Position numbers and translations under genes: made by a program
Assembly (NCBI RefSeq): GCF_024298765.1
Contig: NZ_CP101210.1
DNA from: Escherichia coli
GTDB lineage: Bacteria > Pseudomonadota > Gammaproteobacteria > Enterobacterales > Enterobacteriaceae
Length of the DNA stretch: 64,000 nucleotides
Direction: 5' to 3' (one strand)
Shown: piece by piece, positions 43,588-52,424 of the stretch
Numbering within the stretch: the stretch's first letter is position 1
How the letters are laid out: each line of letters opens with the position of its first letter
Notes under the pieces: generated by a model
The model's database searches: none
What the model was told of the DNA's origin: nothing
What the model saw: the letters and a program-made list of their open reading frames with translations, nothing else

Positions 43588-44022
43588 TTATTTATGAATA
43601 TAATATAACTGAACATCATATTCATTATCACTTAAAACTATTAGTCGATCGGGAAATGTAAATGCTAATGAAAGATCATATGTTTCATTTATCGAAAACA
43701 AACTCAATATGAAATTTGAAAAATTTTCGACATGAAGAGATATGCAAACATCTCCATTATAGAATATATTGCAAAGAATATCTTTTTTCACATTCAGTGT
43801 ACTTTCAACATCTCTCGCTAGATCATTAATATTTAAAGGTAAATTGAAAACTCTCCTTTCAATAATATTATCGGTTTTATTTATTGCCATTAGCATTTCT
43901 CGATGCCACATGAAGTCATTCTTACGTAAGAATGATACATCAAAGGAAGTGACACCATTTAATTTAGAAGCATAATCTTTTGCTCTAATTAAATTTAATT
44001 TATCTTCAAGGCTAATTTTCAT
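43588..44022 (-). CDS. Putative Rhs-toxin immunity protein (orphan cassette 1)
   Basis: 144-aa low-GC ORF starting 4 nt before the stop of the orphan toxin reading frame; typical rhs-CT/rhsI arrangement. Confidence 0.6.
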   Translation of the reverse strand: MKISLEDKLNLIRAKDYASKLNGVTSFDVSFLRKNDFMWHREMLMAINKTDNIIERRVFNLPLNINDLARDVESTLNVKKDILCNIFYNGDVCISLHVENFSNFILSLFSINETYDLSLAFTFPDRLIVLSDNEYDVQLYYIHK

Positions 44023-44470
44023 AATATATATGATGATCCTTAGTTACAGGGTCATTGATCTTCTGATATCTATCACTTTTGAAATCGTATGTTCTAGGAT
44101 CAGCGCCCGGTTTAGGTTGTCCTGCATGTGCGTGAGGGCCAGGTGCCCTAGGATCTGCCGTGTGCTCGACTACAACTTTCTTACGTCCGTAGGCATCTGT
44201 ATATTCATAATATCGCCCATGAGACCCTAAATCTTCCGAATATTTATAATTTGTTTGTCCCCTTCTTCTAGGATCATTTCCAACGGTCCATTGCCTATTA
44301 GGTTGCTGTGAACGAGGTATGCCCGCAAGATCTTTTGCTTTATTTAGTGCCTGACGACGGTTTCTTAATTCACCACATTTAAGACCAAGCGGATCTATCC
44401 AGCTTACTGGATTAGGCGCGTAAGCATATAAGTTTAGCCCCCCCGCCAGCCCTATCGGGTCGGGTTACGT
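44011..44470 (-). pseudogene. Orphan rhs C-terminal toxin remnant (no start codon; in-frame stop before the DPxGL motif)
   Basis: Reverse-strand frame reads ...[46 protein letters not shown] followed by a 125-aa unique domain ending at the immunity gene; not in the ORF track because it lacks a start. Confidence 0.7.
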
Positions 44471-44634
44471 AAATGTTCCACAGTCCGAGTCGTAGTACCT
44501 CAGAAGGTTGCAGTGCAATCCCGCCTTGCGACATCAAGGCATAGTTTCAGAAAAAGTAAGGAGCAATCACCATACCCCAATTCACTGGGTGCTAAATAAT
44601 ATCTGGTAACATCCCTTACTTCAATTCTATTTCA

Positions 44635-45030
44635 TTACAACTTCTTTACTTTCCATATTCTTTGCGCAGCTAAAAAAGATACTCCTTTGAACCAAGACGC
44701 ACATTCAATAACTTGTTCCCATGAATATATTTTATGTGAGCTAAATTTTATCGATTCATCTTGGTTCATTATCTCAATAAAATAATATCCTTTATTATAA
44801 TCTCTTTTTTCTATTCTATCTTCAGCTCTTGCCGAACGTATAGAAATAACACAATCATCTAATAAACAAAATCTTTTCTTTATAATCGCATCATCTTGGT
44901 TCCATGGATTTGTACTTGCCATTTGTTCTGATTGTTTCAGCTCATTCACTACTGTATACCAAATAGCTTCGGTATCACTTGCCTTTGCATTCTCTCTATC
45001 AGACTCGGATCTAAATATAATTTTGTCCAT
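44635..45030 (-). CDS. Hypothetical protein, possibly an orphan immunity gene
   Basis: 131-aa low-GC ORF between H-repeat copy 2 and the orphan toxin remnant; no recognisable motif. Confidence 0.4.
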   Translation of the reverse strand: MDKIIFRSESDRENAKASDTEAIWYTVVNELKQSEQMASTNPWNQDDAIIKKRFCLLDDCVISIRSARAEDRIEKRDYNKGYYFIEIMNQDESIKFSSHKIYSWEQVIECASWFKGVSFLAAQRIWKVKKL

Positions 45031-45107
45031 TTTAATAATCCAAATGTAAATTACTTAAAATACCCTCTGCCTCATTCCAGGCATTGACATGGGAACCCAG
45101 GGAAAGA

Positions 45108-49947: not shown

Positions 49948-51753
49948 TTATTTACGCCGAGTTATTTTTGCATTATCAGAAAGAACAATATCACCTTTCA
50001 CAGTCAATTCATCTATATGGTATCGAGGGTTTGTTACCCACTCTAATTGCTCGTTAGGTACATCTGTTTCCACATAATCTCTACCTTTCCCACGACCTAT
50101 TTGATATTTCGCCTCTATGTCTACTTGACTGAGTGGTTTTTTATTCGCAGGTTCCAAATATACACGACCGTTATCATGCGCCTTAATTATCCCACTTTCA
50201 GCAATCGCATTTGAACCTTTACGATTAGTATAATGCCGCACACGAGTAGTTCCATTACAGAGCTCTTTTTTTAATCCGAGTGGATCAATATATTTCAGCG
50301 GATTAGGCGCATAAGCATATAAGTTCAACCCACCCGCCAGCCCTATCGGATCCGTTACAATGAACCGCCCGACATCCGGATCATAGTACCTGTGCAGATT
50401 GTAATGCAGCCCTGTTTCCCTGTCGAGGTACTGTCCCTGGTAGCGCAGGTTCTGCTCCACCCTGCCGTGGTCCTTCTCCTGTATCGTGTTACCCCAGACC
50501 TGATACCCCGTCTCCCACACGATTTTCCCGTCACTGTCCGTCATCTCTTCCGGCGCGCCGTTCACATCCGTGTGAAAATACAGTATCCGGTTCGGGCCCT
50601 CTTTGCCCGCCTTATCCACCCGCGCCAGCGGTTCATAACTCCCCGGGTCCCTGTAGATGTACAGGCTGTCTGTTCCCTCCGGCCTGCTCTCCTGCGCCAG
50701 CCGCATTCCGTCCCATAAAAATGCCGTCCGGTTGTACGGTTTACCGTCAGGGCTGATGTGCTGTTTTTCCGTCCGCCTCCCCAGCGCATCGTACACATAC
50801 CGGTACGTTCCCCGCGCTGTCGTCACTTCCACCATCCGGTGTTCCGCATCATAACGGTAACTCTGCGTGCCGCTCCGCCCCTCCTTTTCCACCGCACGGC
50901 CAAATTCGTCGTAACGGTAGTGCACACCACGGTAAGACATCAGCCGGTTGAACGGCACCACGCTGTTTTCTGCCGTGGCCCTTTCCCCCGCGCGCCGCCC
51001 CAGCAGGTTTCCCGCCGCGTCGTACTGCCAGCTCGCCAGATACCCCTCATCCTCCGAGCGGCACGCCGTGATGCGCCCCGTGGGGTCGTAGAAGTAATCC
51101 GTTTCCCCCCGCCGGCTGTGCCGCGTCTTCAGCAGTTCATCCTCGCCACTGTAGCTGTACTGCCGGTCCGTGAACGTCTCCGGTACCACCCCGCGCATCC
51201 CGCTGTATGTCTCCCTGCGCTTCAGCCGCCCGGCGGGGTCGTAAAGCTGCCGCGTGCTCAGTCGCCCCTGACTTCTGAGCACTTCACGGTGCAGGGCGTC
51301 ACGAGTGAACTCGCTGATGACCTCCCGGTCCAGATTTATCTGCTGGAGATGGCCGCTGCCGTAGTACAGATGACGCTGCGTTCTGCCGTCCGGAAAGGTG
51401 GTGGCTGTCCGGTTGCTGAGTTCATCGTACTGATGGGTCAGGACGCCCTGCGCCGTCTCCTCAGTCAGCATCCGCCCCAGTCTGTCGTAACTGAAACGGA
51501 TAATCTCCGGTGCGTCTGTTTCCCCGGCATCCGACCGTCGGCGGCGGATTTCCAGTAACTGGTCTGCCGCATCATGGACGTATTCCGTACGGCTATCGGC
51601 TGTCTCCTTTGCCGTGAGCCGGCCCGCCGCATCACGTGCCAGCCGGTGGCGGATTTCACCGCCCCGGTCCCCGGTGAACACCACTTCCGTGACCGCGTTC
51701 AGCGCGTTGTAGCGGTACGTCTGGCGGCAGCCGTCGTGCTGCCAGCGCAGCAT
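49948..51753 (-). CDS. Orphan rhs fragment: about 480 aa of Rhs core plus a distinct C-terminal toxin domain
   Basis: YD-repeat core near-identical to the main rhs, then DPIGLAGG...DPLGL and a unique roughly 108-aa tail ([29 protein letters not shown]...); rhs homology starts at DGCRQTYRY, so the track Met is fortuitous. Confidence 0.8.
   Translation of the reverse strand: [601 protein letters not shown]
50362..51735. repeat. 1.37-kb direct repeat, copy A (orphan rhs core)
   Basis: Essentially identical to 52880-54253 (offset 2518 bp); the antisense track ORFs 50392-50718 and 50758-51558 recur identically at 52910-53236 and 53276-54076. Confidence 0.9.
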
Positions 51754-51774
51754 CTGCCCAACCGCAGCGACACG

Positions 51775-51978
51775 CCGGTGATCAAAATCAGCGCCAAATG
51801 GCTGAGAGAAGCGGGATTTGAGATCGGCACGGGCGTTACCGTGAAGATCTCGGAAGGCTGCCTGATCCTGCTTGCAGATAACAACGGAGTACAGGAACTG
51901 CGCAGGGAACTTTATCAGGTTAAACAGTCTGTTAAGGGGATGCGGAACGGGATGTTTAGTATGCTGAACGATAATTAA
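51775..51978 (+). pseudogene. SymE-like toxin gene 3' fragment
   Basis: Encodes ...IKISAKWLREAGFEIGTGVTVKISEGCLILLADNNGVQELRRELYQVKQSVKGMRNGMFSMLNDN; 5' part replaced by the orphan rhs junction. Confidence 0.7.
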
Positions 51979-52043
51979 ATAATAAAAAGCCGGGAAGATT
52001 TAATTTCTTACCCGGCTTTTGATAACTTAATAATATTATAATC

Positions 52044-52424
52044 CTAAATCAATCTTTTTTTTAATTCCCTTATTTCAGGAGTTAATGCAAAACTGTCTTC
52101 TAAAGATTCGTCATCCAAGGCCCAGTAATTAATAAGATCTATATGATTTTTATAATTATCAAGCAGAGTGTTGAGTGCTTTTACAATAACTTTATCTGAA
52201 GGAGGTACTCCAGAAGATAATAAATCATTACAGACATCAAGGGCTAAAGTCATTAATTCATTCTTCCCTTTTTGTGAGTAGCCATTATTTAAATATGCAG
52301 CAATATATTTACTTAACCACTCTTTAGTTCGATATTTTTCAGGCAGTTCATAAGCCCAATCTTGTGTAAACTTATCACTCACTGGTACACCAAGTTCACT
52401 ACAGATTTTATCTATTTCATTCAT
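52044..52424 (-). CDS. Putative immunity protein for the main Rhs toxin
   Basis: 126-aa low-GC ORF 18 nt downstream of the main rhs stop. Confidence 0.65.
   Translation of the reverse strand: MNEIDKICSELGVPVSDKFTQDWAYELPEKYRTKEWLSKYIAAYLNNGYSQKGKNELMTLALDVCNDLLSSGVPPSDKVIVKALNTLLDNYKNHIDLINYWALDDESLEDSFALTPEIRELKKRLI

Follow-up and report, generated by a model that had tools for sequence, protein, structure and literature searches.

The rhs locus between ybfA-kdpF and ybgA-phrB

We have analyzed a 64,000-nucleotide stretch of an Escherichia coli genome (contig NZ_CP101210.1; hereafter the window, whose coordinates are used throughout) in which a full-length rhs gene is followed by an array of displaced Rhs toxin tips, each with a small putative immunity gene. 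In the RefSeq annotation of a near-identical complete E. coli genome the array lies between ybfA-kdpF and ybgA-phrB, i.e., it is the known E. coli rhs locus at kdpA-phr, rhs 'position 5' of Jackson et al. (2009; PMC2935791), and as such an ordinary and already described locus type. The names that RefSeq gives to its genes (three RHS-core proteins, ISAs1/ISEc1 transposases, two SymE-family genes, a truncated 'DcrB-related' gene and an 'HNH/endonuclease VII fold putative polymorphic toxin') agree with a first-pass annotation, made from the sequence alone, that had proposed a main rhs gene with orphan rhs toxin/immunity cassettes behind it. A megablast search with the 14.2-kb array stretch against 5,426 complete E. 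coli genomes, the collection to which the genome counts below refer, gave matches at 99.5–99.8% identity, mostly in avian-pathogenic and human isolates, and 39 genomes had at least 80% of the stretch in one place. Since the array recurs, similarly annotated, in dozens of independent complete genomes, an assembly artefact was ruled out as the source of its repeats.

The main rhs gene (52442–57100, minus strand) codes for 1552 amino acids, as judged from its translation and profile matches. The protein starts with a prePAAR-like segment, AARQGDALLH, and continues with a PAAR motif, DUF6531, a shell of YD repeats, the Rhs-associated core with its DPIGL...DPLGL end and a tip of 115 residues. The PAAR motif (Pfam PAAR_motif, 2.1e-5, residues 291–321) and DUF6531 (3e-18) were recovered by Pfam, and the shell and core by the NCBIfam models RHS_core (1.6e-89), YD_repeat (8e-68) and Rhs_assc_core (1e-28). 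AARQGDALLH, at residues 7–16, fits the prePAAR motif, AARxxDxxxH, and the Pfam prePAAR_I match is weak (E = 1.8). The main tip had no match in Pfam or in the Protein Data Bank (PDB); matches to mS71, with E about 0.03, were discarded as noise. Its homologues are unnamed, mostly short proteins of Pectobacterium, Xenorhabdus, Cronobacter, Proteus and Paenibacillus. Next to it, an immunity-like open reading frame (ORF) of 126 codons and 31% GC (52044–52424, minus), recognized by position and composition, always accompanies the main tip in the 45 genomes that carry it.

Upstream of the main gene we found a remnant of the chaperone gene eagR (DUF1795, 'DcrB-related'; 57119–57322, minus), identified by its translation and annotated as a pseudogene by RefSeq in L001 (the loci fetched for comparison are numbered with L). 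By reference to the intact 151-residue EagR of L006, the beginning of the protein, MTEYYLNE, is joined out of frame to ...GLQIQSQFLRG..., from about residue 84 onward. No vgrG is present upstream of the main rhs at this kdp locus (57119–57322 and on to about 57400). Thus, of the features that mark the type VI PAAR-linked Rhs proteins, the YD repeats with the core end and the PAAR motif are here, and the adjacent vgrG and a working Eag gene are missing. The main gene is 96.5% identical to a vgrG-linked rhs paralogue located at pptA, where in other strains both vgrG and eagR are intact. Besides, the whole rhs module of the kdp locus resembles a copy of the pptA vgrG-eagR-rhs locus minus its loading genes. 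Because vgrG is absent and eagR internally deleted, delivery of the toxins of this locus would depend on genes elsewhere in the genome; it would have to use the pptA locus, which at least strain APEC 102026 has.

Core ends and tips downstream of the main gene

A six-frame scan of the 64 kb for DP.GL found the pair DPIGL/DPLGL, 22 codons apart, four times, always on the minus strand: in the main gene at 52870/52804 and in three downstream fragments at 50352/50286, 47597/47531 and 44461/44395. The sole further match in the window is an unrelated DPLGL at 22392. In blastn comparisons the core homology of all three fragments to the main gene stops at the DPLGL codons, and the NCBIfam model of the Rhs core end also matches the residues upstream of all four tips, so that the earlier claim of a retained DPIGL...DPLGL terminus in three fragments held up. 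The mapping of core breakpoints on the main rhs that had been recommended at the time gave 54253–52791 for the first fragment and short segments for the other two. Each of the three has a core fragment without the N-terminal part and native start, a DPxGL end and a distinct tip, and we refer to them as orphans 1–3.

The base composition changes along each cassette, from 54–62% GC in the cores to 38–42% in the tips and 27–32% in the small downstream ORFs. BLASTP detected no pairwise similarity among the four tips or among the five small ORFs (no match with E<0.9), as anticipated in the first-pass annotation, which spoke of different C-terminal domains and small low-GC ORFs. None of the five immunity-like ORFs matched Pfam or NCBIfam; 'Serglycin' matches in Pfam turned out to be artefacts of the Gly-Ser linkers used to join concatenated queries. 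As for the number of cassettes, the three orphans with DPxGL cores were counted correctly and a fourth remnant was missed. There are thus four cassettes and five immunity-like ORFs, not three and four.

Orphan 1 (49948–51735, minus) consists of a core fragment of 1463 nt (50273–51735) and a tip of 107 amino acids (49948–50272) that belongs to the Tox-ART-HYD1 ADP-ribosyltransferase domain (ART; Pfam PF15633, 4e-13). Its core, 51735–50273, aligns over its 1463 nt to main gene positions 54253–52791 with 98.4% identity. All 23 mismatches are located at 50278–50463, within 190 nt of the tip, and the remaining 1272 nt (50464–51735) are identical. The repeat period is 2518 bp. At the junction (51735/51736) a truncated symE gene, symE', is joined to the core with no insertion sequence (IS) in between, and a diverged array, in strain 06-00048, has the same symE'–core junction at about 95% identity. 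A fortuitous ATG at 51753, 18 nt past this junction and antisense to symE', opens a continuous ORF of 601 codons (51753–49948) that includes the HYD1 tip as well as the core fragment. The immunity-like ORF of orphan 1 (49620–49946, minus; 108 amino acids, 30% GC) co-occurs with the HYD1 tip in 72 of 72 genomes.

Orphan 2 (47145–47792, minus) keeps only 275 nt of core (47518–47792), 93.8% identical to the main gene by blastn and with a longest perfect run of 91 nt; its ORF starts at a TTG that lies inside the end of an ISEc1 element. The 123-residue tip gave no Pfam match and is near-identical to chain C of PDB entry 8OWS (E = 1e-76), the DNase PT1. The following ORF (46777–47145, minus; 122 amino acids) is near-identical to chain A of the same entry, 'PIM1' (E = 1.5e-73). 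PT1 is a magnesium-dependent DNase that PIM1 blocks in vitro (bioRxiv 10.1101/2021.10.19.465003). Through its near-identity to the PIM1 of the crystallized PT1-PIM1 complex, the immunity function of the orphan 2 ORF can be considered established.

In orphan 3 (44012–44523, minus) a decayed core remnant (44385–44523) precedes a 122-residue tip with the Tox-HNH-EHHH nuclease domain (Pfam PF15657, 2e-8). By blastn the core, 44523–44385, matches the main gene over 140 nt at 71%, and has an in-frame stop just before DPIGL. Upstream of DPIGL it is heavily decayed, and from that motif on it shares about 96% identity with an intact gene of E. coli O169:H41 (L006), where the orphan 3 immunity-like ORF (43588–44022, minus; 144 amino acids, 27% GC) also accompanies the EHHH tip. 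With the fortuitous ATG of orphan 1, the TTG of orphan 2 and this stop, the three fragments indeed lack a native start, as had been stated.

The toxin of the fourth cassette is reduced to its last 21 codons (GSHVNAWNEAEGILSNLHLDY) and the stop (45032–45097, minus), cut by ISEc1 copy B, and its immunity-like ORF (44635–45030, minus; 131 amino acids, 32% GC) is intact. In another E. coli strain (L007) this ORF lies behind a complete orphan with DPIGL...DPLGL and a 124-residue tip that ends in the same 21 residues; that complete tip had no Pfam match. The ORF is also found, 98.6–98.8% identical, at the pptA rhs position of many other genomes.

In all, three tips and one immunity protein have an identity. 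The search of toxin-domain libraries suggested in the first-pass annotation named the HYD1 and HNH-EHHH tips and left the main tip, the orphan 2 tip and all the small ORFs without a match. For the HYD1 and EHHH tips no solved relatives were found by sequence.

Switching of the toxin tip among E. coli genomes

The orphan 1 tip and its immunity ORF were found in 72 genomes, and the main tip with its immunity ORF and the symE fragment in 45. About 43 genomes have the arrangement of the window, and in 29 a full-length rhs gene ends in the orphan 1 tip. We built as a sequence the recombinant that a crossover between the two core repeats would produce and used it as a search query. It was matched contiguously in 22 genomes and, with an additional deletion of 34 nt, in another 7, while the rest covered it only to 84–85%, as expected for the window arrangement. 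In three fetched examples of the fusion (13P477T, CS18F and MDR_56) the HYD1 tip follows the full-length gene without interruption and the remaining array is unchanged. All 29 lack the main tip together with its immunity gene and symE fragment. The fused rhs-HYD1 gene of MDR_56 is an intact ORF of 1544 amino acids. The flanks of the two allelic states are 99.9% identical. Toxin switching at this site is therefore visible in the population, since the HYD1 tip sits directly on the full-length gene in 29 genomes. The locus provides a clean natural example in which the HYD1 ADP-ribosyltransferase is the deployed toxin in some genomes and the first orphan in others, against backgrounds that are otherwise 99.9% identical. 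The 34-nt core deletion of the seven rhs-HYD1 fusion genomes (in 13P477T, at about 10488–10499 of L002) frameshifts the gene; the alignment pieces overlap there by 12 nt, possibly a microhomology.

The potential for switching is very unequal along the array, and orphan 1 is the only good substrate today. It offers 1463 nt of homology (1272 of them identical), against 275 nt at 93.8% in orphan 2 and about 80 nt of moderate similarity plus a stop in orphan 3. On these lengths, homology would be enough for recombination in orphan 1, marginal in orphan 2 and insufficient in orphan 3, which is effectively dead as a substrate because its core has decayed and has an in-frame stop. The view of the array as a reservoir for toxin switching, advanced on first inspection, is thus sustained directly for orphan 1 by its 29 fused genomes; for the other two no fusions were found at this locus.

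A different view is that the array is mainly a graveyard and immunity store, a record of past tip displacements kept as protection against neighbours that fire those toxins, and no working reservoir for switching. Damage accumulates in the toxin parts but has spared all five immunity-like ORFs (21 toxin codons in the fourth cassette, a stop and a decayed core in orphan 3, 275 nt of core in orphan 2), eagR is inactivated and vgrG absent at the kdp locus, and in Vibrio cholerae effector displacement has been described to leave arrays of immunity genes (PMC5361080). Against this, orphan 1 has an intact tip and still matches the main gene perfectly over 1272 nt, and both allelic states occur in near-identical backgrounds. 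We would put it a little short of even odds. For the distal cassettes it is actually compatible with the explanation that we favor below, from which it differs in emphasis alone.

Orphan tips at the pptA position

The tips of orphans 2 and 3 have each been found on a full-length vgrG-eagR-rhs at pptA ('position 6'), in APEC 102026 (L005) and O169:H41 (L006), respectively. The gene order in both strains is vgrG-eagR-rhs-immunity-symE-ISAs1 fragment, and the two loci are collinear save for the segment with the tip and the immunity gene (733 versus 786 nt), which is bounded by the DPLGL codons on one side and the terminator and symE on the other. The gene with the orphan 3 tip is intact in O169:H41, and the one with the orphan 2 tip is frameshifted in APEC 102026. 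In this latter strain the rhs gene (L005 9016–9046) holds a 30-nt scar of an ISEc1 end that replaces 20 nt of core and causes the frameshift. The scar is identical to the orphan 2/ISEc1 junction of the window (47793–47822), so the IS-truncated orphan 2 and the full-length gene of APEC 102026 share a history. The exchange in APEC 102026 is no clean homologous recombination. Such a scar could come from an exchange between the orphan array and the distant full-length gene, or from imprecise excision of the IS.

Insertion sequences in the array

Three copies of ISEc1 (ISAs1 family, H-repeat) are interleaved with the cassettes, all on the minus strand. Copy C (47793–49084) has a frameshifted transposase and truncates the core of orphan 2, and was recognized by repeat families D1, D3, D4, D6 and D8. 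Copy B (45098–46388; 1291 bp) has an intact transposase of 378 amino acids (NCBIfam transpos_ISAs1, 1e-123). The partial copy A (42460–43439; ybfD pseudogene) closes the array beside ybgA-phrB. They are 94–100% identical and in direct orientation, as a repeated element of ISAs1 type of about 1.3 kb, and their ends lie directly against two of the cassettes (orphan 2 and the fourth) and against two symE genes. Next to copy C there is a fragment of an IS256-family transposase gene (49090–49494, plus; NCBIfam transpos_IS256, 4e-15 and 2e-14), a pseudogene in RefSeq.

The association of the H-repeat (ISEc1) with Rhs elements is classical. For this reason, and because comparable arrays exist in L003 and L007, the description of the array as 'unusually rich' was not justified; at the same two rhs positions other strains have arrays of equal or greater complexity.

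It could be argued that the array was built chiefly by ISEc1 activity, through composite transposition or IS-mediated deletion and duplication, and not by recombination between cores. The three direct copies are spaced 2.7–2.95 kb apart and adjoin the cassettes and symE genes just mentioned, and the orphan 2/ISEc1 junction turns up again, as the 30-nt scar, in the full-length rhs of a different locus. However, the junction of orphan 1 has no IS and presents instead the symE'–core joint with a 1463-nt direct repeat, as expected from core recombination, and at pptA, where the tips vary from strain to strain, the exchanged segment is free of IS. We therefore regard ISEc1 as a quite improbable main builder of the array.

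Two other regularities were seen. An ISEc1 end lies 8 nt upstream of the start codon of symE at two loci (46388/46396 in the window and about 7608/7616 in L006), and, in the third copy of the window, ISEc1 joins the 3' end of symE directly. These joints suggest either a preferred insertion site or repeated deletions adjacent to the IS, which would displace the promoter and antisense region of symE. A module made of a tyrosine integrase, a Toprim/DnaG-type primase, a helix-turn-helix (HTH) protein and symE recurs in or beside toxin-cassette arrays (L003 16968–18653; L007 9984–15153; L008–L010). It occurs in E. coli, Erwinia and Xenorhabdus, a hint of a satellite-like carrier of cassettes that is small and integrative.

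A terminator and a convergent symE at the end of the cassettes

Three SymE-family genes or fragments, all on the plus strand, face the immunity genes of the window. The 5'-truncated symE' (51736–51978; NCBIfam SymE 3.9e-10, also named by RefSeq) converges with the immunity gene of the main tip, from which it is separated by a bidirectional terminator hairpin (51984–52020; -20.3 kcal/mol, z = -5.05). A full-length gene of 109 codons (46396–46725; NCBIfam SymE 1.8e-13) converges with the PIM1 gene, again with a bidirectional hairpin in between (46731–46766; -20.8 kcal/mol, z = -5.69). A 3' fragment with its hairpin (43441–43575, with symE at 43441–43542 and the hairpin at 43538–43575, z = -3.4; repeat families D9 and D10) has its 5' side cut by ISEc1 copy A. 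For the full-length protein the SymE model gives 50 bits, against an equivalog cut-off of 132, and the homologues all carry PF08845; with that score the protein belongs to the family and is not the orthologue of the K-12 SymE. As ISEc1 lies 8 nt upstream of the ATG of the complete gene and the other two copies have no 5' ends, the native control region of symE is missing or displaced in the window. In the type I system SymE/SymR that region comprises the cis-antisense RNA SymR, which lies over the 5' end, and SOS control through LexA.

We aligned the sequences downstream of ten different immunity genes from the window, L003 and L005–L007. Conservation starts 10–20 nt past the immunity stop codon, with a hairpin made of an A-run, a GC stem and a T-run, followed by the 3' half of the convergent SymE-family gene. 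Almost every tip/immunity cassette in the window, L003, L005–L010 and L012–L014 ends in this way, whether the toxin is of the Rhs, contact-dependent inhibition (CDI) or HNH type. The boundary was found in every fetched E. coli locus with a symE-family gene and in all four of the other genera sampled from the list of homologues. In Pectobacterium parmentieri every cassette of a prePAAR-Rhs array is followed by a symE copy, and in Salmonella enterica a 1561-residue Rhs and its immunity ORF are followed by symE. The order is Tox-HNH-HHH, SUKH immunity gene and symE in Erwinia pyrifoliae, and CdiI orphan, transposase gene and symE in Xenorhabdus doucetiae. In the literature that could be searched, SymE neighbours of such cassettes are mentioned in passing only (PMC3942780, PMC7764402, PMC11278526).

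We propose tentatively, and with the odds somewhat against it, that the convergent symE and the bidirectional terminator could be an integral and conserved 3' boundary of tip/immunity cassettes across Enterobacterales (Rhs, CDI and other toxins), providing the second homology arm for double-crossover swaps between loci and strains. Through its terminator and its type I toxin, this boundary might also insulate or stabilize the cassettes. Its regularity is the sole part of the locus that might repay further work.

Proposed formation and maintenance of the array

Taken together, the window is best read as an E. coli rhs element made of one intact prePAAR/PAAR-Rhs type VI effector gene with its immunity gene, followed by displaced tip/immunity cassettes that are bounded at the 5' side by DPxGL and, where no IS has cut them, at the 3' side by the terminator and the convergent symE. 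We give this reading a probability of roughly 0.85. The anatomy, the two allelic states and the identities of three tips and one immunity protein are observed here; we infer the direction and mechanism of the individual events, as well as expression and delivery. New tips would arrive with a piece of core and displace the resident tip downstream. A circle of 2518 bp that contains a piece of core, the tip with its immunity gene and a symE fragment, and that integrates through one crossover, would fit the junction of orphan 1, and the reverse crossover between the direct core repeats would remove the current tip and join the full-length gene to the next one. ISEc1 has cut orphan 2 to 275 nt of core and deprived the fourth cassette of its toxin, and the core of orphan 3 has decayed. 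Since all five immunity-like ORFs are intact, the distal part of the array has most likely been retained as a stock of immunity genes.

The conserved core end may have a further role. A promoter-like site, TCGACA-17-TACAAT, is identical in the main gene (52944–52916), orphan 1 (50426–50398) and orphan 2 (47671–47643), always on the minus strand and about 90 nt upstream of the PxxxxDPLGL codons, and has a degenerate counterpart in orphan 3. The internal (P2) start sites of Salmonella rhs were mapped 89 nt upstream of PxxxxDPxGL (PMC7043789). By virtue of this site, the first two orphans may in addition serve as toxin-antitoxin pairs with internal expression. That the cassettes are in general transcribed from a promoter within the core end and work independently of secretion seems rather unlikely to us. 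The coincidence of the site with the Salmonella P2 position in three of the cores speaks for it, but it is only a consensus match, orphan 3 has it in degenerate form and the fourth cassette does not have it, and the internal product of Salmonella has a weak CTG start and very low protein levels (PMC7043789).

Several observations weigh against the displaced-cassette reading or parts of it. The mismatch pattern of the core repeats is compatible with either direction of change between the two orphan 1 states. No genome of the complete E. coli collection has the main rhs of the kdp locus on the tip of orphan 2 or orphan 3, and the ISEc1 scar with its frameshift in APEC 102026 is at odds with a simple exchange of tips. 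Four of the five immunity-like ORFs gave no family match and are putative immunity genes, assigned by position, composition and strict co-occurrence with their tips. The broken chaperone gene and the lack of vgrG beside the main rhs bear on delivery from this locus, and the putative internal promoter is recognized by consensus only.

Arrays of Rhs tips and immunity genes set which neighbours a strain kills and which attacks it survives, and hence bear on competition among gut and avian-pathogenic E. coli.

Comparison with known systems

Earlier publications cover the position of the locus, the model of tip displacement, the switch by recombination and one toxin/immunity pair, and the window adds no new principle to them. 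Close parallels are the E. coli rhs positions 5 (kdpA-phr) and 6 (yncG-pptA) described by Jackson et al. (2009; PMC2935791), which share with the window the location, the GC-rich cores with low-GC tips and the strings of dissociated tips with variable core lengths. Their model of circle integration and excision predicts the 2518-bp repeat geometry found here. The window differs in that its rhs is of the prePAAR type and has a long string of tips, whereas, according to the same authors, dissociated tips are generally missing from the clade I loci of E. coli. The rhs of Serratia marcescens Db11, SMA1610 (PMC2935791), is followed as well by three fragments over several kb of low-GC DNA, with a partial core, a full core repeat and a recognizable tip, although it belongs to another species and rhs clade and interleaving with ISEc1 was not reported.

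The rhs locus of Salmonella Typhimurium LT2 (PMC3967940, PMC7043789) belongs to the same family of long PAAR-Rhs proteins and has downstream an orphan core fragment with tip and immunity gene. Recombination between its main and orphan genes has been seen experimentally, and the fusion expresses the orphan toxin (Koskiniemi et al., 2014; PMC3967940). The position of the LT2 internal promoter upstream of PxxxxDPxGL also matches the promoter-like site of the window (Starsta et al., 2020; PMC7043789). By comparison, the window has four successive cassettes in varied states of decay, interleaved with ISEc1, and no longer has vgrG or a functional eagR; switching is documented here by population genomics and not by experiment.

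The PT1-PIM1 pair (PDB 8OWS) is near-identical to the orphan 2 tip and its ORF, with the difference that the pair of the window is an orphan without a delivery domain. Finally, the cdiA-CT/cdiI orphan arrays (Poole et al., 2011; PMC3150448) have other boundary motifs and a different delivery protein, CdiA, which uses type V secretion, but like the rhs array of the window they consist of displaced tip/immunity modules located downstream that keep a short conserved motif before the tip.

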